From Candidatus Spongiihabitans sp. (GTDB lineage Bacteria; Pseudomonadota; Gammaproteobacteria; Arenicellales; Poriferihabitantaceae): a stretch of DNA of 64,000 nt. Every line of letters starts with the position of its first letter. Position 1 is the first letter of the stretch. The notes below the pieces were generated by a model. It was given only the letters and a program-made list of their open reading frames with translations. It was not told the origin of the DNA and searched no databases. Shown here piece by piece: positions 492 through 63,653 of the stretch. Position numbers and translations under genes: made by a program. The stretch covers positions 673,160-737,159 of the forward strand of contig OZ253452.1 of assembly GCA_965261425.1 (NCBI GenBank), in the 5' to 3' direction.

Positions 492-2510
492 TTATATTTT
501 CATCACATCGCTGTCTAAAATCTGAGCTTTTCGGATTCGGTTGATGCGGTCTCGAAGGGTGGCTGCGGCTTCAAATTCCAGATTTTTGGCGCAGGCATAC
601 ATGTCCTTTTCGAGTTTTGTGAGCAATTTTCCGAGTGCTTTGGGTGAGCGCGGATAATATTCTTCAGTCTGCTCGGCATCTAGCATGTCATTCCACGAAG
701 AATCATTTGCCGCCCCGTCTATAATGTCCTTAACCGGTTTGATGATGGATTTTGGTTCAATCTGATGTCGTATATTGTAGGCATGTTGTTTATCTCGGCG
801 GCGGTTGGTTTCTTGCACCGCTTGACGGATAGAATTGGTTTCTTTGTCGGCATATAAAATAACCCTGCCGTTGATATTTCTGGCAGCCCGACCGATGGTC
901 TGAATCAGCGAACGTGTTGAGCGCAGAAACCCTTCCTTATCGGCATCAAGGATTGCCACCAGCGAAACTTCGGGCAAGTCCAGTCCTTCCCGCAGTAAAT
1001 TGATGCCGACCAACACATCGAAGACACCCTTCCTTAAATCCCGAAGAATCTCGACCCGTTCTACGGTGTCAATATCCGAGTGTAAATAACGCACTCGGAC
1101 ATTATGTTCGTGATAATACTCGGTTAAATCTTCAGCCATGCGCTTGGTCAGGGTGGTGACCAAAACCCGTTCATTGACCGCAACCCGTTTATTGATTTCA
1201 GAAAGCAAATCATCGACCTGCGATTCGACCGGTCGTATTTCTAGTTGCGGTTCAAGTAAACCGGTCGGGCGCACGAGCTGCTCTACCACGTCCGCGCAAC
1301 GACTCGCTTCATAGTGTCCGGGGGTCGCAGAAACAAAGACCACCTGTGGCATTAAGGTTTCAAACTCATCAAATCTCAGCGGTCGATTATCCAATGCGGA
1401 TGGCAACCGAAAACCATATTCAATCAAGTTTTCTTTGCGCGAACGGTCGCCCTTATACATCGCCCCAAGCTGGGGAACGGTCGCATGACTCTCATCGATG
1501 AACAAGATGGCATTATCCGGCAGGTAATCCATCAAGGTCGGTGGCGGACTTCCAGCACTGCGCCCCGACAGATAACGCGAATAATTTTCGATGCCATTGC
1601 AATAGCCCAGCTCGCGCATCATTTCGAGGTCGTATAAAGTACGTTGCTCAAGGCGTTGCGCTTCAACCAGTTTTCCGCACTCGCGCAACTGTGCCAGCCG
1701 CTCTTGCAACTCTAGTTTGATGTCATCAAGCATCGCGAGGATGGTTTCACGCGCAGTCACATAATGACTCTTTGGATAAACCGTGACCCGATTAAGATGC
1801 TCTTCCACCTCGCCGGTCAGCGGGTCGAATTTGGAGAGTTGCTCAATTTCATCGCCAAATAACCCAATACGAATTGCCAGCCGTTCCGATTCTGCTGGAT
1901 AAACATCAATCACATCACCACGCACCCGAAAAGTGCTACGCCTCAGCTCCAAATCATTACGAATATATTGCAATTCGGCGAGTCGCCGTAATATTGCTCG
2001 CTGGTCAATCTGATCGCCCTTTTTTAAGTGCAGAATCATCTCATGGTAGGCGGTCGGATCGCCCAAACCATAAATCGCCGACACCGTCCCGACAATCACA
2101 ACATCGCGTCTTTCCAATAATGCCTTAGTCGCAGAAAGCCGCATCTGATCAATATGCTCGTTGACGGAAGCATCCTTTTCGATATAGGTATCTGAACTCG
2201 GCACATAGGCTTCGGGCTGATAATAATCGTAGTACGAGACAAAGTATTCAACCGAATTGTGCGGGAAGAAATCACGCATTTCCGAATACAGTTGGGCAGC
2301 CAGCGTTTTATTATGTGCCAAAATCAGTGCCGGACGACCAGTGGTAGCAATGATATTCGCCATGGTGAAGGTCTTGCCCGAACCGGTTACGCCCAGCAAA
2401 GTTTGAAATGATTCACCATTTTCAACGCCGTCAATCAACCCATTGATCGCCTGCGGCTGGTCGCCCGCCGGCTTAAACGCACTGACTAGCTGGTAATTTT
2501 TAGAACTCAT
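492..2510 (-). CDS. uvrB: excinuclease ABC subunit B
   Basis: 672-aa ORF. Walker [16 protein letters not shown], helicase motifs, and a C-terminal UVR domain ([15 protein letters not shown]). Confidence 0.97.
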
Positions 2511-2595
2511 ACTATGAATAATGACGAATTACGAAAAACATGGACATGGATGGACAGGAATCAAATTGCGCTTTTTACATTTAGAGACCGCTGCA

Positions 2596-2690
2596 CTTGT
2601 GCCCTGCGGGTGCTTGTGCCCTGCGGGTGCTTGTGCCCTGCGGGTGCTTGTGCCCTGCGGGTGCTTGTGCCCTGCGGGTGCTTGTGCCCT
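2596..2690. repeat. Tandem array of the 17-nt unit CTTGTGCCCTGCGGGTG (5 full copies plus a 10-nt partial)
   Basis: Direct reading: units at 2596, 2613, 2630, 2647 and 2664, with a partial at 2681-2690. All full units are identical and nothing separates them. Confidence 0.95.
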
Positions 2691-2727
2691 GATACTGTGC
2701 AAAAATCTAATATTCGTAGCTCCGTAG

Positions 2728-2758
2728 ATTGAAAATTGAAAATTGAAAATTGAAAATT
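2728..2758. repeat. Heptamer tandem repeat (ATTGAAA) x4
   Basis: Direct reading of attgaaaattgaaaattgaaaattgaaaatt. Confidence 0.9.
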
Positions 2759-3323: not shown

Positions 3324-4937
3324 TTAGCGCGTAAAAACCAAGTCGGCGGGAATGGCAAAGCCGATGCCCTCTACATTCTCATCAACGAACTTAAAAGTCG
3401 TAATTCCGACCAAATTACCGTCGCTGTCAAACAAGCCGCCGCCAGATGAACCCGGGGATATGGCGGCATCGGTTTGCACAACCTGATAACCGTCTATTTT
3501 CCGCAGTTGCGAAACAAGCCCAGCGGACAAGGATAAATCTAACCCTTGCGGCGCGCCCAAACTATACACATTCTCGCCCACCCTGAGGGTCTCGTATTTT
3601 CGCATTGTTGCAGGAACACCCCATAAACCATCAACCTCCAACAAGCAAAAATCCTGCTCGGTATCGCTGTGGCGGATAACCGCCGTCAAGGGCGTTGTCG
3701 TATCGACTCGACGATTGTTGGCTTTATACACGCTAATATCGCCACCCTCATCCACCACATGGCAGTTGGTTGCCACCACATTAGGGCGCACAATCACACC
3801 GCTACCCTGGCTGTCGTTGTTCACAATCACAACCACCGACCGCCAGGATTTTTCAAAAACCTGCTCGGCAATATTGGTGCTTTTAGATGGCTCCGCCAAG
3901 GCAAAGTTGTGATCCAAGCCGGCGTTTGTAGCAGAATCTGCTTTGCCTTGTTCGATATCTTGCTCAATGGCTCGTAATCGCCGTGCCGCTTCACGGCGGG
4001 CTGATTTTATTTCTGCGGCATCCAGATGCCAGTTATTCTCACGCAAACTATTCGTCGCTAATTCATTGCCGTTTGCCTTGGCAATGGAAAACCAGATAAA
4101 TGCCTCACGCTCATCGGTAATAAATCCTTCACCATTCCAATACATCACGCCCAAATTATATTGTGCGCTCGCATCCCCCTGCTCTGCCGCCAGCCGATAC
4201 CAGCGTACTGCCTCACTAGCATCCTGAGTAACCCCTCTGCCATTAGCGTACATCAGGCCCAAATTAAATTGTGCATCCGCAACCCCCTGCTCTGCCGCCT
4301 TGCGATACCAGCGTACTGCCTCACTAGCATCCTGAGTAACCCCTTCGCCTTTCCTGTACATCCCGCCCAAATTATATTGTGCGCTCGCATCCCCCTGCTC
4401 TGCCGCCTTGCGAGTCCAGCGTACTGCCTCGCTATAATCCTGAATAACCCCTTCGCCATTAGCGTACATCAGGCCCAAACCATATTGCGCGTTCGCATAC
4501 CCCTGCTCTGCCGCCTTTTGATACCAGCGTACCGCTTCGCGCTCATCTTCGATAACCCCGTAGCCATTCCAATACGCAACGCCCAAATTATATTGTGCGC
4601 TCGCATCCCCCTGCTCTGCCGCTTTTTGATACCAGCGTACTGCCTCGCTAGCATCCTCAATAACCCCTTTGCCATTAGCGTACATCACGCCCAAATTATA
4701 TTGTGCCTCCGCATACCCCTGCTCTGCCGCCTTGCGAGTCCAGCGTACTGCCTCACTAGCATCCTGAGTAACTCCTATGCCTTCATGGTACATCACGCCC
4801 AAATTATATTGTGCATCCGCATCCCCCTGCTCTGCCGATTCGTATTGCGAACAGAAATATGTATTATCAGACGGGCATTCGGCATGGGCAGTGTTAAACA
4901 CCATAGCAATCAGCAGTATTAACAGACTTTTTTTCAT
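3324..4937 (-). CDS. Secreted Sel1-repeat protein fused to a trypsin-like (S1/HtrA-type) serine peptidase domain
   Basis: Signal peptide MKKSLLILLIAMVFNTAHA. Seven 36-aa Sel1 units (AEQGxxxAQYNLGxMYxxGxGVxQDxSEAVRWYRKA). The C-terminal domain carries the triad contexts TNCHVV, DFCLLEV and GSSGGGLF. Confidence 0.85.
   Translation of the reverse strand: MKKSLLILLIAMVFNTAHAECPSDNTYFCSQYESAEQGDADAQYNLGVMYHEGIGVTQDASEAVRWTRKAAEQGYAEAQYNLGVMYANGKGVIEDASEAVRWYQKAAEQGDASAQYNLGVAYWNGYGVIEDEREAVRWYQKAAEQGYANAQYGLGLMYANGEGVIQDYSEAVRWTRKAAEQGDASAQYNLGGMYRKGEGVTQDASEAVRWYRKAAEQGVADAQFNLGLMYANGRGVTQDASEAVRWYRLAAEQGDASAQYNLGVMYWNGEGFITDEREAFIWFSIAKANGNELATNSLRENNWHLDAAEIKSARREAARRLRAIEQDIEQGKADSATNAGLDHNFALAEPSKSTNIAEQVFEKSWRSVVVIVNNDSQGSGVIVRPNVVATNCHVVDEGGDISVYKANNRRVDTTTPLTAVIRHSDTEQDFCLLEVDGLWGVPATMRKYETLRVGENVYSLGAPQGLDLSLSAGLVSQLRKIDGYQVVQTDAAISPGSSGGGLFDSDGNLVGITTFKFVDENVEGIGFAIPADLVFTR
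4067..4840. repeat. Intragenic ~108-bp tandem DNA repeats encoding the Sel1 units
   Basis: Blocks such as gcccaaattatattgtgcgctcgcatccccctgctctgccgc recur at about 108/216-bp spacing with near identity. Confidence 0.85.
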
Positions 4938-4986
4938 GGTTTCCTCGTTATGGGCGGTAAATATGCGTTTTATTGTAACAAATATT

Positions 4987-5063
4987 TGATAATTGAAAAT
5001 TGAGAATTGAAAATGGACGGTAAATTGATAATTGATAATTGATAATTGATAATTGAAAATGAT
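4987..5063. repeat. Heptamer-periodic tandem repeats (ATTGAAA / ATTGATA variants)
   Basis: Direct reading: aattgaaaattgagaattgaaaat...aattgataattgataattgataattgataattgaaaat. Confidence 0.9.
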
Positions 5064-5160
5064 AGTTAGATTTTGAAAAGAATATTTGACTGATTTCCTG
5101 CTTCCGTGTGGTGACTACCGAAAGTGTGGCTTTGGCCGCGCCACAAACAAGCCGGACTTA

Positions 5161-5255
5161 TGTACAGGATGTACGGGCAAATAATTGCTCCTGCATTATT
5201 TGCACTTCCGCCATCCATGGCGGTCGTATGCCGATTTTGCAGGAGCAAAAATCGG
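5161..5255 (+). mobile_element. Hairpin-module miniature element, 95-nt form (45-nt core plus 50-nt module B at 5177-5226)
   Basis: Identical to the 45-nt copy at 20855-20899 except for a 50-nt block inserted between GTACGG and TATGCC. TA lies on both sides (5159-5160 and 5256-5257). Confidence 0.8.
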
Positions 5256-5429
5256 TAAAGTCCCGCTTCCGAGATTATGCGAGAATCCAACATTCGTAGC
5301 TCCGTAGGAGCGGTATCTTTCTTTTGTGTCGCTCCTACGGAGCTTTGGCTGTCTCATTTATTTGTGCTACAAAGGTGTCATCCCTACGGGATTTTACTCA
5401 ATTCTTAATTTTCAATTATCAATTAAATC

Positions 5430-5517
5430 GAGACTGTGTAAAAATCCAATATTAGTCATTCCTAACCCCCCTTGCCCCCCTTATCAGGGGGGAATTGAGT
5501 GGAAAGTCCCTCTGATA
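5430..5517. repeat. GAGACTGTG module plus the intact arm of a long palindromic repeat (CCTTGCCCCCCTTATCAGGGGGG...)
   Basis: 5463-5517 is the reverse complement of the sequence flanking the IS110 left end at 6868-6890. It contains the uninterrupted IS110 target string. Confidence 0.75.
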
Positions 5518-5607
5518 AGATACTGTGTTAAAAATCCACTTATTTTCAACTTTTTTTCGGCTCATTGTTAGAATGACTTTGCCGGCTGGGATTCCACCAC
5601 AAACGCG

Positions 5608-6602
5608 CTATCTGCAAGCATAATTGACATCAAAAGGCTGTTCTGATTTTAATACCCCATAAGATATAACCAGTAGTTTCCGCATCACCGCGCACACTGC
5701 CACTTGTTTAGGTTTGCCTTTATCAAGTAGCCTATTGTATAAATTCTGCGTGACTGGATTGTGTCGCGTTGCCGTCAGTGCTGGCATATAGAGAGACTTT
5801 CTCAGGCGTTTGTGCCCTATTTTTGACAGACTACTCTTGTTGATACTACTGCCAGACTGGGTTATCTTCGGATTCAACCCAGCAAAACTGGCCACTTGCT
5901 TGGCGTTATCAAATGACGATATATCCCCCATATAGGCGAGGATAGCCCAAGCCGTTTTGTTGCCAATCCCGCCAATGCTGGTCAATAACCGTACTTGTTG
6001 ACGCAACACAGAATCGCCTACAACCAAGTCCTTGATTTCCTGTTCAACAATCACTATTTGCCGACAGATGTACCGAATCATCGCTTTGATTGATTTGCTG
6101 GCGGTCTTATTCAAACTCACTGGCAAACGATTCTTCTCTTGGGTTGATTGTTTGTTTAACTGCTCCAAGCGCGTCATCAGGCATTGTAACGCAACACTGG
6201 CTTCGCTTTTGGGCTTGAACAGATTTTTCTCTAACTCACCTTTGGCCACAATATGTTGACAATAACGCGCAATGCTGCCAGCACTTGTGCCCTGTGGGTA
6301 TCGGATTTATCCGTTTTATTACGCAACATTTCCATCTTGACAAACGCATGGGTTCTCATTGGGTTCGCCACAATCACCTGGTCGCCTGAGCGATGTAAAT
6401 AATACGCCAAAGCAACCCCATAAACGCTGGTGGCTTCCATACAAAACACCCGCTCTTGCGCTGCGTCCAATGATTTTAGCCATTTGGACAAGGCTTTGAA
6501 GCCTTTATGATCATTAGCAAAAGACGGGTTGTGGTCAACACCCTCAACGCACACAGCACCATCAAAACGTGCTTTAGATATATCAATACCGATACATAAC
6601 AT
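5608..6602 (-). pseudogene. IS110-family DEDD recombinase/transposase split by a 17-nt insertion
   Basis: The N-terminal ORF (MLCIGIDISKARFD...RNKTDKSD) and the C-terminal ORF (...LLTSIGGIGNKTAWAILAYMGD..FAGLNP, Transposase_20-like) are in different frames. Deleting 6283-6299 fuses them into about 325 codons. Confidence 0.9.
6283..6299. repeat. 17-nt cassette ACTTGTGCCCTGTGGGT (equivalently CTTGTGCCCTGTGGGTA at 6284-6300) inserted in the IS110 transposase gene
   Basis: It matches the tandem unit at 2596-2690 and the copies at 44113 and 44282. Removing it gives ...KTDKSD|AGSIARYCQ... in frame. Confidence 0.85.
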
Positions 6603-6867
6603 AACATTCTCCGGTTATAATTGTAGATAGGTTGGATCATTTAACTTCGGTGCATCCTCGTACTATTCGTGCTCAGATTTTTGGTCTTGCACCAGATACT
6701 GTCCGCACTTGATGAAGTTAAAGCGGGTAGTAGGTGCGATACCTTGTCAACAAGTTTAAAAACTTACTGGGGGCTACTGCATCACTACTACCCATCCAAC
6801 CGCCGTTGGATAGGGTCCATTAAAAACCACTAAACGAGTTGATAATTTACCCGATTGGGATCATACG
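6603..6867 (-). ncRNA. Putative IS110 guide (bridge-type) RNA region in the non-coding left end
   Basis: A 265-nt non-coding segment lies upstream of the recombinase, as in IS110-subgroup elements. A long-range stem (6725-6736 paired with 6783-6793) encloses a hairpin and loops. This call comes from the family architecture, not from a covariance model. Confidence 0.35.
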
Positions 6868-6888
6868 AGGGGGGCAAGGGGGTTGGGT

Positions 6889-6915
6889 TTTCAATTCTCA
6901 ATTCTCAATTCTCAA
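6889..6915. repeat. Heptamer tandem repeat (TTCTCAA) x3, overlapping the cobS stop codon
   Basis: Direct reading: ttcaattctcaattctcaattctcaa. Confidence 0.85.
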
Positions 6916-15025: not shown

Positions 15026-15149
15026 GAGACCGTGCAAAAATCCAACATCCGTCTTTCCTGCACCGACCTCGTCTTTCCTGCGAAAGCAGGAATCCAGTAA
15101 AATACGCAAACCCGCAAGGGTTTTCGGTTTCAATTTTCAATTTTCAATT
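15026..15149. repeat. Mosaic intergenic repeat ending in a heptamer run (TTCAATT x3)
   Basis: Shared modules. It contains the hairpin AAACCCGCAAGGGTTT between the convergent malic-enzyme and iolE genes, which could act as a bidirectional terminator. Confidence 0.8.
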
Positions 15150-17960: not shown

Positions 17961-18071
17961 GATTGATAATTGATAATTGATAACTGTCCACTGACAACTA
18001 TCTTTTTTTACTGGATTCCTGCTTTCGCAGGAAAGACAGAGGTTCGGTTCTTGCACAATCTCAAACGACTC
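17961..18071. repeat. Heptamer repeat (ATTGATA x3, then ACTGTCC ACTGACA) followed by mosaic repeat modules
   Basis: Direct reading, followed by the shared TTACTGGATTCCTGCTTTCGCAGGAAAGAC module. Confidence 0.85.
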
Positions 18072-20854: not shown

Positions 20855-20899
20855 TGTACAGGATGTACGGTATGCCGATTTTGCAAGAGCAAAAATCGG
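20855..20899 (+). mobile_element. Hairpin-module miniature element, minimal 45-nt form
   Basis: TGTACAGGATGTACGGTATGCCGATTTTGCAAGAGCAAAAATCGG, flanked by TA on both sides and by GGGACTTA...TAAAGTCCC. It corresponds to the core of 5161-5255. Confidence 0.75.
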
Positions 20900-20998
20900 T
20901 AAAGTCCCACTTCCAGTGTTGGTAAACTGCCCACTGACAACTGAAATAAAGACGCGCATCAGTTACAATCGGGACTTTAATTCTTATCCATTTTTATT

Positions 20999-27291: not shown

Positions 27292-27552
27292 ATGTACTTG
27301 TTAATTCAGACCGTTATGTTTTCAAAAGACAAAGCCACTAGGAATAAAATGTGTGAAAATACAATTGATCGCCTGAATGAGCTTCTTGATTATGTGCGTT
27401 GCGTTGGAAAGCTTAATCAAAAACCAGTGTTCAGAGTAGAAGACTACAAGCAACTACATATTTGGGAGCATGCGTTAAAGGGGAAAATCGGAATCCATCA
27501 TAATATTGTTGATAACGATGGTGTTTCTATCTGGGGCGAATTCAACCCATAA
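27292..27552 (+). pseudogene. 5' fragment of an unknown larger gene, truncated by an IS30 end
   Basis: The ORF (…RLNELLDYVRCVGKLNQKPVFRVEDYKQLHIWEHALKGKIGIHHNI…) runs directly into the IS30 terminal repeat. Its last codons, W-G-E-F-N-P-stop, are IS sequence. Confidence 0.6.
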
Positions 27553-27826
27553 GTGCAACACGGTGGTTAAAGAAATAGTCTTTGCCCATCATTTCAGCAA
27601 AGACCTCGAAAGGGGTCTTAAATCCCAGACATTTTCTGGGACGATTATTCATTAAATCTGTTGCTGTTTTCACCGCATTGTCAGTGATTTTATCAAGTTT
27701 CATCTTTTTCGGGAAGAACTGTCTCAATAGCCCGTTATGGTTTTCATTCGATCCACGCTCCCAGCTATGATACGGCTTGGCAAAGTAAGTGTTGCAATTT
27801 AATTGTTTGGCAATTTCATTACACAA
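27535..27826 (-). mobile_element. IS30-family element, right-end fragment (transposase C-terminus only)
   Basis: …YFAKPYHSWERGSNENHNGLLRQFFPKK…LNNRPRKCLGFKTPFEVF is the conserved IS30 DDE C-terminal region. The N-terminal roughly 250 aa are missing. The ORF ends inside the terminal repeat. Confidence 0.88.
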
Positions 27827-29485: not shown

Positions 29486-29909
29486 CGTATGATCCCAATC
29501 GGGTAAATTATCAACTCGTTTAGTGGTTTTTAATGGACCCTATCCAACGGCGGTTGGATGGGTAGTCGTGATGCAGTAGCCCCCAGTAAGTTTTTAAACT
29601 TGTTGATAAGGTATCGCACCTACTACCCGCTTTACCGGTTTTTGCTCCTCGACAATTGCTCCTGCATTGTTCTAATAAGTTACATCCATGTAACGATACA
29701 AAACCGGCATACGACCGCCATGGATGGCGGAAGTGCAAATAATGCAGGAGCAATTATTTGCCCGTACATCCTTGTACATTAACATCATCAAGTGCGGACA
29801 GTATCTGGTGCAAGACCAAAAATCTGAGCACGAATAGTACGAGGATGCACCGAAGTTAAATGATCCAACCTATCTACAATTATAACCGGAGAATGTGATG
29901 TTATGTATC
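29486..29909 (+). mobile_element. Second IS110-family copy: left end plus the first 4 codons only (truncated)
   Basis: Apart from the 145-nt insertion it is nearly identical (a handful of mismatches) to the reverse complement of 6591-6867, including ATG TTA TGT ATC (MLCI). Homology stops at 29909. Confidence 0.9.
29635..29779 (-). mobile_element. Hairpin-module miniature element, 145-nt form (core plus modules B and C) inside the IS110 left end
   Basis: It is absent from the otherwise near-identical copy at 6603-6867. The filled site reads CCCGCTT-TA-[145 nt]-TA-ACATCATC and the empty site reads CCCGCTT-TA-ACTTCATC. Confidence 0.9.
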
Positions 29910-42897: not shown

Positions 42898-43605
42898 TAC
42901 GCACTCCAATTGTTTAGGTTAAATTATATTTCACTTGATGATATTTATTTCACAAGCGGATTGTAGTTTAGGAGGCAAGTTGAGTCAAGCCCTTTTTCAA
43001 GAATGTTAGCCCAAAGCAGTAATGTCCCCTTTTGACTTCTTCAGGAGCGGTGCGGCGGGCTCACCGAGCGAGGGTTATGACAGAGGAGATAATTACATTG
43101 AGCCATGCAGATGAGCTGGGCAGAACTTGACCGAGTATCGGTTATTCATTCCATTATCGGGTGCCGGCGAGACCAGCACAGGCGGCGCGGCAACTACACT
43201 TAGGTCTCCGGCAGGTAAAACGCTTAACCCACGCTTATCGAGACTGTGGTGCGGCTGGACTTGCCTCCAAGCGGCGTGGGTGCCCGGCAACGCCATTGGT
43301 GATGAGTTGCGCCAACAGGCACTCGCCATCATCAAGACGCACTATGGTGATTTTGGGCCGACTTTCGCGCACGAGAAGCTCACCGAACTGCATGAGTGCC
43401 ATTTCTCGGTGGAGACATTACGAAAGTGGATGATTAAAGATGGGTTGTGGTTGGGGAAACAGCGTAAAAGAGTAGCCATCCACCAAAGCCGGTCTCGGCT
43501 GGGCGAGCTGGTACAGATTGATGGATCACCGCATGATTGGTTTGAGGGGCGCGCACCTAATTGCACTTTAATTGTCTTTATCGATGATGCGACCAGTCGG
43601 CTATA

Positions 43606-43748
43606 TGTACAGGATGTACGGGCAGATAGCTGCTCCTGCATTATCTGCACTTCCGTCTTCCATGACGGTCGTATGCCGGTTTTGCATCGCTACATGGATG
43701 TAACTTAGTAGGGCAATGCAGGAGCAATTGCCGAGAAGCAAAAACCGG
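43606..43748 (+). mobile_element. Hairpin-module miniature element, 143-nt form (core plus diverged modules B and C) inside the transposase ORF
   Basis: It has the same module order as 29635-29779. Removing exactly 43606-43748 rejoins …DDATSRLY|LALHFAPTETT… in frame. Confidence 0.85.
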
Positions 43749-44112
43749 CCTGGCTTTGCATTTTGCGCCCACAGAGACCACTCAATCGTATATGGAAACC
43801 CTCCATCAGAAACTTGAACAGCATGGCCGCACAGTCGCTATTTACAGCGATAAGCACAGTATCTTTCGGGTCAATCATCCCCAAAATAAAGAAATAGCAC
43901 GAGGGCGAATTAACCCAATTTACCCGCGCACTCAAAACCCTAGATATTGAGCCTATTCACACCAATACCACGCAGGACAAAGGGCGGGTAGAACGTGCCA
44001 ATAAAACGCTGCAAGACCGACCGGTTGTCGATCCGCGCTTACAGGGTATCAACTCTATTGAGCAAGCAGATGCCTTTTTGCCACAGTTTATTGACGACTA
44101 CAACCAGCGTTT

Positions 44113-44129
44113 TACCCGCAGGGCACAAG
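44113..44129 (-). repeat. 17-nt cassette (TACCCGCAGGGCACAAG, the reverse complement of CTTGTGCCCTGCGGGTA) inserted in the ISNCY-like ORF
   Basis: The upstream frame (…FIDDYNQRF) and the downstream frame (AVTAQHTDNAHRALL…) differ by exactly this 17-nt block. Confidence 0.8.
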
Positions 44130-44281
44130 TGCCGTTACCGCGCAACACACCGACAATGCACATCGTGCGCTATTGCACAGCGTCGAGGAGCTTAAACTGA
44201 TCCTCTGCCGGCACCATCAGCGTAAACTGTCTAAGAATTTAACCTTATCATTTTGTAACACCGAATATCAGCTGACTGGCT

Positions 44282-44298
44282 CTTGTGCCCTGCGGGTA
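44282..44298 (+). repeat. 17-nt cassette CTTGTGCCCTGCGGGTA inserted in the ISNCY-like ORF (opposite orientation to 44113)
   Basis: After …NTEYQLTG the frame breaks. Removing the block gives …LTG-YGKGYRLMR…. A separate 1-nt indel near 44325 then leads into ATITLCEDG…. Confidence 0.7.
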
Positions 44299-44733
44299 AC
44301 GGCAAGGGCTATCGTCTGATGAGGAGCGACCATCACGCTCTGCGAAGACGGTGCTACGGGTTTGGTTACATTGCTATACAAAGGCAAGGCATTGACTTAT
44401 CGAACGCTCCAAAAGGGAAAGGCCGCCGTTGTGATTGCCGATGATAAGACCGTTCATAACCACGTTGAGCCAAGCACTTCACCGACAACAAAAATTCACT
44501 TAGAAACCCGCACCAGATCATCCATGGCGGAGACCATTAACCCGTTATTCAACCAATACTGCCCCATAATGAATATAAAAAGGGGACATTACTGCTTTGG
44601 GTTGACACTATTTTGAAGTTGAAAATTACGACCCTTGTTTATGGTAAATCTGTTTTATTCTCCGTGTCCTCTGTGCCCTCGGTGTCGCATCTTTTAGAAA
44701 ATCTTGTTCATCCTGTTCATCCATGTAAATAGT

Positions 44734-53157: not shown

Positions 53158-54603
53158 TTATTCGGCTTGATTCGGCTCAACGCCGACCTGTGAATTTCTG
53201 CTTTTAATGAGTACACGAAGCGCGTTTAATGATTCCGAAATATCTGGTATTTCGGCTTGCGGCGAGAGCAATCCGACCGCGTCAAGTCGTGCTAACCAAC
53301 GCACTGTTTGGTCCGCATCTTGGGTAAAATTTTCCGCAACCCAACTGCGGGTGGCGTGGATGCGATTTTGATACAGCTCGGGCTGTTGTCGAATGAAGGC
53401 AATTTGCGCTGAACTCAACAGCAATTGCGTTCTTTGATAGGTCATCTGTCTGACTGCCGCCGAGATAACCGGATTAACCGATTTGTCATTTTTTTCAACT
53501 TGAATCAGGTCACCCAAACCGGACAGAAACGATGCTACGGCATCGCTAATCGGCTGCACATAGCGATCCATAGACGACTCTTCAGAGGGTTCAGACGGTG
53601 TCGGTGCCGCTTGCTCTGAATCTGCCACAACACGATCAGGTTCCGCGATATCCCCAGCAAGCACGAGGTTTTCTGCCGTGCTTGATAACACCGATAATTT
53701 ATTTAACACACCGATAGTATCGATAACCTTGACCTCATCCAACGCGGTTATTTCTCTCGCTAATAACTGCCGAACCTGATTGAGTGCGGGATCCGCCAAC
53801 TTTTGCAACAGCGCGTCTGCATCTTGTAAAGCGCGACTGGCAAGGGAGCTCACGCCGGCAAATTGTCCGCCCAATTGCGCTTGTTGTTGTGCCATAAAAA
53901 TCAACTGCTCGACCTGTTCAAGCGTTCGGCCACCCAAATCACGTCCCTGCTCAGTGCGTAGTTTCACAATGGCATCGGATAACGTGTTCAACTGCTGGAG
54001 AAAGTCATCTGCCTGCGTATTTGCCGCCTGTTGCGAGTCGGATTGTCGCGCAACCATGTCATTTTGAATGGTTTTAAGCTGCTTGCTGAACCCCTCCTCC
54101 AACTGAGCAAACTGGTCTTTCAATCGACTTACTGTATTGTCATTATCCGACTGCATGGCATCGAAGCCATCAATACGCTGCTCTAACGCATTAAATCGGG
54201 ATTCCTGCTGCCCAACATTGCCAACCACCGCCAAATACCAGACCACTCCGCCAACCCCTAACGCCAAACCACTGAGCAACAATGCAATCCACGAAACAAC
54301 ATTGCGCCCGCCTGATCCATCCATTGTCGATCCCGAATCGGTTTGACCTGTCATTGGGCTCGACTGACCAGATTCGACCGAAGTACTGGCATGTGATGAT
54401 TGCGGGGATGATTCCTGAGACGACATTGAATGGTCAGGCATCGCATCAGACGTGTCGGAAACTTGTTTATTGTTGCGGGTTACTTTTGTTGCGCCGACTT
54501 TCGTGCTGACTCGCTTTTTTGCGCCTTTCTTTTTTACGCCTTTCTTTTTTGTAACGGTCTTTTTTGTAACGGTCTTTTTTGTAACGGTCTTTTTTTCTGC
54601 CAC
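53158..54603 (-). CDS. hemX: HemX-type membrane protein (annotated elsewhere as uroporphyrinogen-III C-methyltransferase-like)
   Basis: Position between hemD and hemY; one TM segment (VVSWIALLLSGLALGVGGVVWYLAVV); a coiled-coil Q-rich region; a Lys-rich repeat N-terminus. Confidence 0.7.
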   Translation of the reverse strand: MAEKKTVTKKTVTKKTVTKKKGVKKKGAKKRVSTKVGATKVTRNNKQVSDTSDAMPDHSMSSQESSPQSSHASTSVESGQSSPMTGQTDSGSTMDGSGGRNVVSWIALLLSGLALGVGGVVWYLAVVGNVGQQESRFNALEQRIDGFDAMQSDNDNTVSRLKDQFAQLEEGFSKQLKTIQNDMVARQSDSQQAANTQADDFLQQLNTLSDAIVKLRTEQGRDLGGRTLEQVEQLIFMAQQQAQLGGQFAGVSSLASRALQDADALLQKLADPALNQVRQLLAREITALDEVKVIDTIGVLNKLSVLSSTAENLVLAGDIAEPDRVVADSEQAAPTPSEPSEESSMDRYVQPISDAVASFLSGLGDLIQVEKNDKSVNPVISAAVRQMTYQRTQLLLSSAQIAFIRQQPELYQNRIHATRSWVAENFTQDADQTVRWLARLDAVGLLSPQAEIPDISESLNALRVLIKSRNSQVGVEPNQAE

Positions 54604-63132: not shown

Positions 63133-63328
63133 GCGACTGTGCAAGAAACCCACGCTAAGCATGTGTTACATGCGGAAAACCCTTGCGGGTTTGGCTATTT
63201 TACTGGGTTCCTGCTTTCGCAGGAATGACGCATATTGGATTTTTGCACAGTCTCTTCCGCAGGAATGACGGACTAGGTTGCTTCTCAATTATCAATTATC
63301 AATTTTCCATTTTCAATTTTCAATTTCC
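63133..63328. repeat. Mosaic intergenic repeat plus heptamer runs (CAATTAT x2, TTTCAAT variants)
   Basis: GCGACTGTGCAAGAAACCC…GGAAAACCCTTGCGGGTTTGGCTATTTTACTGGGTTCCTGCTTTCGCAGGAATGACG…TTTTTGCACAGTCTC…, followed by ctcaattatcaattatcaattttccattttcaattttcaatttcc. The hairpin and T-run just after fbpC could terminate transcription. Confidence 0.85.
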
Positions 63329-63653
63329 AATAAGTTATGCTACAGTAACACCGTCAGTGAGGTGTTTACACTCCGCAAATAAGTCGCACAAATAACCCAT
63401 TTAACTGGAGGAGATTCCGAATGAAATCATTGTTTACCATAAAAACCCTTAATAATCATATAGTTGCCCCCCCGACATTATGGCAGTCTTTAGCCAATCT
63501 TTGTAATTACAAAAACACTCTCTCTCTCCTTTCAACAAAGATAGTAAAAAAAATAAAAACACATTGCTGACAAGCAGAGTAGCTTCCAACCTCCAACCTC
63601 CATTCTCAATTAAATAAACTATCTTTGGAGCAATAATTTTCAATTCCAAGACG

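Follow-up and report, generated by a model that had tools for sequence, protein, structure and literature searches.

The 17-nt sequence CTTGTGCCCTGCGGGTA is a discrete insertion unit: it occupies sites whose empty counterparts are present in homologous DNA, and its presence or absence at one of them distinguishes nearly identical strains, documenting that it was active recently. We propose, with a probability of about 0.6, that the 17-mer is a tiny, non-coding, hairpin-forming insertion unit and that the tandem array of it upstream of uvrB is a local amplification of a single copy ending in G. The array and three solo copies lie in the window, by which we mean the whole stretch of 64,000 nucleotides that was analysed (Table 1). 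The UvrB encoded here is 88-89% identical to that of Candidatus Spongiihabitans sp., and the host is therefore a sponge-associated gammaproteobacterium.

Table 1. Positions in the window of the 17-mer copies, the genes they lie in or near, and the repeats adjoining the array.
Feature	Position	Strand	Basis or remark
uvrB	492..2510	-	ORF with full set of UvrB Pfam domains; 88-89% identity to Candidatus Spongiihabitans UvrB
Left flank of array, GAGACCGCTGCA	2584..2595	+	Resembles start of MITE-like module (GAGACCGTGCA...); compare copy at 15026
Tandem array of 17-mer	2596..2691	+	Direct read, TRF, mismatch count; identical in L226 and L227
Start of MITE/NIME-like repeat module, GATACTGTGCAAAAATCTAATATTCGTAGCTCCGTAG	2691..2727	+	Abuts array; repeat family D5
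Heptamer run, ATTGAAA x 4.4	2728..2758	+	TRF; inside adjoining MITE-like module
IS110-family element	5476..6882	-	Boundaries from L226/L227 comparison; ORFs 6231-6602 and 5608-6249 split by 17-mer
Solo copy CTTGTGCCCTGTGGGTA (C12 to T)	6284..6300	+	Splits IS110 transposase gene, antisense to gene
ISNCY-family transposase pseudogene	43004..44560	+	Hosts two 17-mers, another repeat of ~90 nt (43592-43686) and further frameshifts
Solo copy	44113..44129	-	Antisense in the ISNCY gene; same site in L060 and L105
Solo copy CTTGTGCCCTGCGGGTA	44282..44298	+	In ISNCY transposase pseudogene, sense orientation

The IS110-family element supplies both a filled and an empty version of one site. Deletion of the 17 nt at 6284 yields a single 329-codon ORF, reading ...KTDKSD/AGSIARYC... 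across the junction, which covers the whole IS110 model (1-343/343, 233 bits), and Pfam agrees. A contig from another assembly (ERZ26693861 ctg132475, L227) carries an IS110 copy at the same chromosomal site, inverted and ~99% identical to the window copy, that is without exactly these 17 nt. Its empty site reads AAATCCGA/TGCTGGCAGC (in short form AAATCCGA/TGCTGG), against the filled site AAATCCGA(TACCCACAGGGCACAAG)TGCTGGCAGC of the window and of a third assembly (ERZ26051151 ctg153957, L120/L226); the junction shows no other difference between L227 and the window or L226, and no target duplication. A second IS110 copy, 97% identical, is flanked by an HSDR_N gene and by FTHFS in a different contig of the same sample (L229) and has the 17-mer at the same position with the same C-to-T variant, showing that the 17-mer also spreads passively on IS copies; a 123-aa N-terminal IS110 fragment that contains the translated 17-mer is encoded at L229 as it is in the window.

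The ISNCY-family pseudogene contains two further insertions. At 44282 the window reads GACTGGCT(17 nt)ACGGCA, against GACCGGCT/ACGGTA in the 75%-identical ISNCY homologues of Pseudohongiella (L060) and Spongiihabitans (L105); in this alignment the boundaries of the insertion cannot shift and there is no target duplication. The copy at 44113 is an insertion too, because the protein freed of both 17-mers matches the ISNCY model (positions 58-366 of 368, 300 bits) and intact plasmid ISNCY/IS1202-like genes in one ungapped piece. Being common to homologues that are 25% diverged, it is likely older than the insertion at 44282. Programmed frameshifting or translational bypass was considered for these genes and is unlikely: the 17-mer occurs in both orientations relative to the gene and is absent from an intact, near-identical IS110 copy.

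The same unit recurs across a wide range of unrelated targets and taxa. When species-representative genomes were first scanned with a 15-mer, 119 loci were returned, mostly chance matches; the full CTTGTGCCCTGCGGGTA is present in every one of its matches in Methylococcales (Methyloglobulus, Methylovulum, Methylomicrobium and UBA659), Gallionella and Nitrosomonadales except L112, and Methylomirabilis and one Anaerolineae MAG also carry it complete. No cyanobacterial match was noticed among the matches listed in this genome scan. Scanning metagenome contigs for the exact 17-mer added 94 further loci. For each site we asked whether removal of 17 nt joins two open frames, and the joined proteins were then identified by a family match across the junction. 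Exact 17-nt deletion restores reading frames in nine transposase families in the window and in other genomes and metagenomes; besides IS110 and ISNCY in the window, the family match spans the junction in IS1595 (L021, L162), DDE_Tnp_1 (IS4/IS5-like; L110, L156), ISAzo13 (L135, L140, L164), ISL3 (L192), IS1 (L056) and a REP-associated tyrosine transposase (RAYT; L136). A further ISL3-like site (L089, L149, L221) can be assigned with less certainty. No relevant mention of the 17-mer sequence came up in a full-text literature search.

Transposase genes account for 12 of the 85 non-redundant contexts of the 17-mer, with about 6 each in sense and antisense orientation. Multiplication of a resident 17-mer along with its IS also explains why the insertion site is shared by homologous IS copies from different organisms (ISNCY; IS1595 in L021 and L162; the site common to L089, L149 and L221). 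The excess in transposase genes could reflect tolerance of insertions in dispensable genes together with hitch-hiking, and not targeting. That the 17-mer is instead a targeted disruptor, written by a trans-acting system that recognises transposon DNA (for instance its single-stranded or hairpin intermediates) as frame-breaking insertions into unrelated transposase families, we regard as very improbable; if true, it would amount to genome defence or element-against-element warfare of a kind not described in bacteria, with the array as a by-product or reservoir.

Apart from genes, the 17-mer lies in the loops of REP-like hairpins (L107, L012, L115, L137, L163, L165, L180), for example as GGTGGAT...(17 nt)TATCCACC in L137 and L165, GTTGGGTT...(17 nt)AACCCAAC in L180 and GGGGCGCGAT...ATCGCGCCCC in L107. 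A stem of at least 7 bp encloses 11.8% of insertion sites versus 4.7% of control positions, a modest excess (p=0.014). One copy (L075) sits inside a MITE-like repeat, and in L161 and L216 the unit is inserted into itself in the nested order A(AB)B. The logo of the flanks is weak, with G/T at -3, C/T at -2 and A at +2, and the left flank reaches at most 0.39 bits at any position. At L012 deletion of the 17-mer seemed to restore a 704-codon gene; this was rejected, the upstream portion being nonsense of high GC content and the 17-mer preceding a lipoprotein gene. A role as a DNA-uptake sequence is unlikely, the copies being frame-breaking insertions and few.

Reading of the sequence upstream of uvrB gave five perfect head-to-tail CTTGTGCCCTGCGGGTG units followed by a partial CTTGTGCCCT(G), and TRF reported a period of 17, 5.6 copies, 100% matches and a score of 192. 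The partial unit measures 10-11 nt, since the G at 2691 can also be assigned to the next module as its first base. Measured from the uvrB start, the array occupies 86-181 nt upstream, and its repeat unit is written as it reads on the strand opposite to the gene (+). The module to its right (GATACTGTGCAAAAATC...) belongs to a repeat family with at least 10 copies in the window on both strands; GAGACCGCTGCA on the left of the array and GATACTGTGCA on its right each represent a version of this module's start, and 2584-2595 and 2691-2701 form an imperfect 11-12-nt direct repeat that frames the array. The stretch as a whole is rearranged and filled with MITE-like modules, heptamer runs and IS elements. 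A preliminary description of this DNA had drawn much the same picture, with a perfect 5.6-copy array some 90-180 nt upstream of uvrB, a partial unit abutting a repeat module and a heptamer run, and solo copies in IS genes that differ from the array unit in the last base (A versus G) and, in one case, by a C-to-T change; our measurements bear this out, and at 16 of 17 identical positions array and solo copies form one family. It missed the main point that the solo copies are frame-breaking 17-nt insertions. The partial unit was also considered as a 17-mer split by the neighbouring module, with its other half in CGGGTT at 2796, and this was rejected, as the CGGGTT stretch is homologous to the second copy of an IS30-like end at 27535.

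Low coverage labels (4x and 2x) on two contigs might raise the suspicion that the array or the solo copies are assembly or sequencing artefacts, or else chance matches. Against this, the identical 5.6-copy array is present in L226 and in L227, which is labelled 180x, in flanks 99.84-99.98% identical to the window; copies of the 17-mer occur in short-read and long-read assemblies from many projects; and with up to three mismatches allowed the window contains the 17-mer 8 times, versus 0.11 expected by chance, 8 copies being reached in none of 100 shuffles. We consider this explanation practically negligible. The array is real and is stable in three strains: because three independent assemblies agree, it is neither an artefact, which the preliminary description had named as a possible refutation, nor visibly variable. 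The copy-number comparison proposed there thus gave 5.6 copies in all three assemblies of near-identical strains, where a contingency locus would be expected to vary in length, and the three strains do differ elsewhere, including at the neighbouring 17-mer insertion in IS110.

The position of the array in the uvrB upstream region, the perfect identity of its units and its retention in three strains could also be read as signs of a functional cis element kept by selection, in the form of iteron-like sites, a spacer or phase-variation device of the uvrB promoter, or a structured transcript. Two predictions agree with such a role: a promoter at 2832-2805, where the uvrB strand has its single sigma-70-like site, would put the array within the 5' leader, and RNA of the + strand of the array folds at -63 kcal/mol (z -6.3, compared with z -0.74 for the - strand). 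The comparison with the closest relatives argues otherwise. In three relatives whose UvrB is 88-89% identical, the DNA ahead of uvrB contains neither a 17-mer nor an array, and therefore the array is lineage-specific; the region holds truB and a tRNA, or an IS, in a synteny that differs from that of the window, so that no orthologous empty site is available for the array. The 17-nt period is out of helical phase and no rep-like gene lies nearby, the copy number does not vary, no Rfam model is matched even at E<=1, MITE-like repeats surround the array as a mosaic, and the same 17-mer elsewhere is plainly disruptive junk inside pseudogenes. A cis-acting function is accordingly held to be quite unlikely, and the array is probably functionless. 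Nor is the array a CRISPR, its units lying head to tail with no unique spacers between them.

The origin of the array can be approached through its last base. All five units end in G, the three solo copies in the window end in A, and copies in other taxa essentially all end in A, with L060 as a G exception. The preliminary description had entertained the array as source or template of the dispersed copies, and as the only multi-copy locus, 16/17 identical to the solos and capable in principle of giving a highly structured + strand transcript, it might seem suited to that role. The mismatch between G-ending units and A-ending solos speaks against it, as does the occurrence of solos in Methylococcales, Gallionellaceae, Nitrosomonadales, Methylomirabilis and others with no other perfect array: searches of metagenome contigs, viral contigs and plasmids for two or more perfect units in tandem gave no further example. 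In addition, the solos ride on IS copies, and the ISNCY copy at 44113, shared by 25%-diverged homologues, is likely old. For these reasons a master locus that produces the solos appears highly improbable.

We consider it probable, rather, that the array arose locally from one variant copy by amplification and was not the donor of the solos. This corresponds to slippage expansion of one inserted copy, the best-fitting of the readings offered in the preliminary description. Its further suggestion of recent expansion or homogenisation stands in part: the perfect identity of the units fits, but the array is not hypervariable and is the same in three otherwise differing strains. The only comparable structure, L168 in another organism and upstream of hisH, reads CCTGTGGCCTGTGGGTA-CTTGTGCCCTGCGGGTA-CCGTGCCCTG/ATTC; here a diverged copy is joined directly at its 3' side by a consensus copy and then by a partial unit, which ends in the same phase as the window array. 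The array may have grown through insertions beside the 3' end of a copy already present, where the GGGTA end would fit the weak target preference. The partial terminal unit, the imperfect 11-12-nt direct repeat and the end phase shared with L168 are features that simple slippage does not account for. A slippage-prone array might also be expected to vary in copy number, and the three assemblies are constant.

As a single strand the + strand of the 17-mer is predicted to fold into a 5-bp hairpin (U5-A17, G6.U16, C7-G15, C8-G14 and C9-G13) with the loop UGC at -4.4 kcal/mol, and its complement keeps only three G-C pairs. Among the fetched loci there are 15 distinct variants, whose changes cluster in the loop (TGC, TGT, TAT, TTT and longer) and at the ends. 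Five of seven stem changes keep a pair, namely A17 to G in the array variant (U.G), G6 to A, seen twice (A-U), U16 to C (G-C) and C7 to U (U.G), and 97% of cells pair. Double compensations are absent, the shuffle control tells nothing either way, and five of seven could result from transition bias by itself. The variant pattern hints that the active form may be the + strand. No Rfam 15 model matched at the gathering score, nor did 2450-2850 and the L111 element produce a match when the cut-off was relaxed to E<=1.

From these features a course of events may be sketched. The sequence CTTGTGCCCTGCGGGTA would enter DNA as exactly 17 nt, with no target-site duplication and in either orientation, at targets loosely resembling G-C/T-N before and N-A after the insertion point; it would often settle in hairpin loops, other repeats and transposase genes, and a copy inside an IS would be copied passively whenever the IS moves. 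One G-ending copy would have landed at the outer edge of the MITE-like module upstream of uvrB and may have been amplified there head to tail; slipped-strand replication or unequal exchange could have done this, or perhaps a series of insertions next to the 3' end of a copy already in place. The moving form may be a single strand, RNA or ssDNA, whose + strand hairpin relies on G.U or G.T pairs, and a trans-acting enzyme would handle it, for which a reverse transcriptase and an HUH/Y1 (RAYT- or IS200-like) transposase are candidates. A single-stranded intermediate and a trans-acting enzyme are suggested by the exact length, the lack of target duplication, the use of both orientations, the liking for hairpin loops and repeats, the self-nesting and the strand asymmetry of the hairpin, and we put this mechanism forward only tentatively. 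In the 64-kb window there is no RAYT-like ORF (tblastn, best E 0.72), no ORF for a YxDD reverse transcriptase and no RAYT gene flanked by 17-mers.

The 17-mer might alternatively be one end, a right-end-like hairpin, of a longer non-autonomous IS200/IS605-PATE or REP/RAYT element, with the solos and the array as truncated, one-ended or remnant products. Every 17-mer in Gallionellaceae and Nitrosomonadales forms the 3' module of a bipartite sequence of ~31 nt, ACCTCGAAGAGGTT plus 17-mer (L012, L107, L108, L111, L179, L195, L199, L210, L215). Both modules are small hairpins, insertion of the 17-mer leaves no target duplication, and in L112 an ACCTCGAAGAGGTT-type module and a 17-mer module lie 56 nt apart, as would fit two ends of one element. 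In the window lineage and in Methylococcales, by contrast, the insertion is exactly 17 nt with clean empty sites; isolated half-sites are about as frequent as by chance, and no larger element bounded by 17-mer halves was found in the 1.6 Mb of fetched DNA. The 17-mer bears no GTAG or CGTC tag, and its stems are far shorter than those of IS200/IS605 ends. An end-of-element origin is on balance unlikely. The related idea that the solos are excision scars left by the two ends of a larger element was rejected, half-sites being near chance and none of them usefully paired.

The closest known analogues of the 17-mer appear to be the small dispersed repeats (SDRs) of cyanobacteria, with REPs next. 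In 2008 Elhai et al. reportedly described SDR1-8 of Nostoc and related cyanobacteria as hairpin-forming sequences of 21-27 nt that occur in MITEs and heptamer arrays and nest within themselves; a single-stranded or RNA intermediate is said to have been proposed for them, and they are said to be perhaps the smallest mobile elements. No enzyme is known for the Nostoc SDRs. Like them, the 17-mer is a very short, dispersed unit with a small predicted hairpin, found inserted in other repeats and minitransposons, beside tandem heptamers and within itself. It is a discrete unit of less than 30 nt at many unrelated sites (85 contexts), with filled and empty pairs (IS110, ISNCY), self-nesting (L161, L216) and an association with MITE-like repeats and heptamers (the module at the array, L075). 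Unlike the SDRs, it has 17 nt instead of 21-27 and shows a conspicuous load in transposase genes and a perfect tandem array; its carriers belong to Proteobacteria (among them the sponge symbiont, Methylococcales and Gallionellaceae) and to a few further phyla, with no cyanobacterium noticed among the matches listed.

Other families of short repeats share less with it. IS200/IS605 ends have much longer stems and a fixed target of 4-5 nt. PATEs derived from such elements resemble the 17-mer in having hairpin ends with neither terminal inverted repeats nor target duplication, and the bipartite Gallionellaceae version looks like a left plus a right end; the solo 17-mer, in contrast, is a single hairpin with no fixed target seen in its flanks and no TnpA or TnpB partner found. 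The 17 nt contain no terminal inverted repeats and neither clean junction shows a duplication, in contrast to a MITE. Rickettsia palindromic elements (RPEs), of 100-150 bp, insert in frame and leave the host protein functional; they too are selfish short repeats that land inside protein-coding genes, whereas the 17-mer always shifts the frame (17 = 3n+2) and affects transposase genes or pseudogenes. Contingency loci and iterons likewise consist of identical head-to-tail units upstream of a gene, iterons often of 17-22 bp, but the array has no length variation in three strains, helical phasing, spacers or replication gene, and its unit is a dispersed insertion element. REPs are imperfect palindromes of 20-40 bp with a GTAG or CGTC tag at one end (PMC3733652); REPs and REPINs are mobilised by RAYT (Y1 HUH) transposases, and such short palindromic dispersed repeats are thought to move as single-stranded hairpins (PMC3116915; PMC3733652). 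The 17-mer is similarly short, lacks target duplication and can sit inside genes and in clusters, one copy even in a RAYT gene (L136), but at 17 nt it carries neither tag on either strand, has a stem of only 3-5 bp and forms no inverted doublets.

The array itself adds little to this picture, as it appears to be a stable, lineage-specific amplification; the interest lies in a 17-nt unit spread across several bacterial orders, which may rank among the smallest mobile DNA units seen. In IS annotation its silent frameshifts in transposase genes could be mistaken for sequencing errors or programmed frameshifting. If it moves as proposed here, the 17-mer would be smaller than the cyanobacterial SDRs, which are reportedly 21-27 nt long, and it offers handles on how such tiny units are cut and pasted, a question standing since 2008: an exact unit with unambiguous junctions, a presence/absence polymorphism between strains >99.8% identical in public sponge-metagenome assemblies, and a host range, with Methylococcales and Gallionellaceae among others, broad enough that a co-occurrence screen could nominate the enzyme.

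The IS110 element occupies one and the same chromosomal site in the two strains compared, that of the window (5476-6882) and the near-identical strain of ERZ26693861 ctg132475 (L227, 8083-9471), in opposite orientations and between flanks that are more than 99.8% identical. Inverted C6/G6 palindromes (AACCCCCCTTGCCCCCC ... GGGGGGCAAGGGGGGTT) bound the element, and the opposite orientation reflects either an inversion between these bounding repeats or a site-specific re-insertion. A second IS110 copy lies at a different locus, on ERZ26051151 ctg163573 (L229, 2001-2995); it shares with the window copy both the 17-mer variant (a C-to-T change) and its position, and its leader has an additional repeat of about 83 nt.

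Mosaic intergenic regions in the window are built from modules of a MITE/NIME-like family, which start with GAGACTGTGCAAAAAWCCAAYAT, often followed by CGTCATTCCTGCGAAAGCAGGAATCCAG, and recall the RS/dRS3 mosaics of Neisseria. The window also has numerous heptamer runs, most of which adjoin these modules; their heptamers are related (ATTGAAA, ATAATTG, TCAATTC, TTTCAAT, ATTGATA and TCAATTT), and the runs are similar to those that cyanobacteria and large sulfur bacteria have as tandem heptamers. One copy of a further dispersed repeat is inserted in the ISNCY pseudogene that also hosts two 17-mers. The 27-nt sequence GGCGAATTCAACCCATAAGTGCAACAC is present twice in the window, and probably represents an IS end, because its second copy is located at the 3' end of an ORF that is a putative IS30-like transposase fragment.

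Repeat families and genes in the window
Feature	Window coordinates	Strand
MITE/NIME-like modules	2691, 5271, 5430, 11377, 11417, 15026, 29434, 58970; 3253(-), 18062(-), 63254(-)	
Heptamer runs	2728-2758, 4982-5064, 5398-5425, 6891-6915, 15128-15149, 17962-17983, 63285-63331	
Further dispersed repeat, ~45-95 nt	5147-5241, 43592-43686, 29699-29779, 20870-20914	
27-nt GGCGAATTCAACCCATAAGTGCAACAC	2768-2794, 27535-27561	
Putative IS30-like transposase fragment (ORF)	27542-27826	
gatB 3' end	1-400	
Sel1-repeat protein fused to trypsin-like protease domain	3324-4937	(-)
15-nt tandem repeats	54514-54595	
ORF with the 15-nt repeats	53158-54603	(-)

Repeats are also found within coding sequences. The Sel1-repeat/protease gene contains a 108-nt coding repeat in 6.5 copies of about 82% identity. 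The ORF with the 15-nt tandem repeats carries them in frame at its 5' end, as 3.5 perfect copies of TCTTTTTTGTAACGG and further diverged ones; together they presumably encode a lysine-rich repeat. For gatB, the alignment of L120 5142-6605 (ERZ26051151 ctg153957, a near-identical strain with the same array), which falls just outside the window start, to intact Spongiihabitans GatB requires three different frames, so that gatB is either a pseudogene with frameshifts or misread in this contig, whose coverage label is 4x.

Outside the window, the 17-mer of Gallionellaceae and Nitrosomonadales is fused with a second mini-hairpin, ACCTCGAAGAGGTT, to give a unit of about 31 nt (loci L012, L107, L108, L111, L179, L195, L199, L210 and L215), which often has a REP-like loop or a pair of flanking CRCAGATT repeats as its setting; at L112 (3488-3576) the two halves are separated by 56 nt. 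A Syntrophomonadaceae MAG (L119, 58-125) features a 47-nt tandem repeat with GTTGTGCCCTGCGGGTA in every unit. The exact 17-mer also occurs at a single conserved site across related viral contigs from IMG/VR (L121, L123, L125, L128 and L211), with short inverted repeats (ACTAGAT...ATCTAGT) on both sides of it, and may there represent an insertion into phage DNA.
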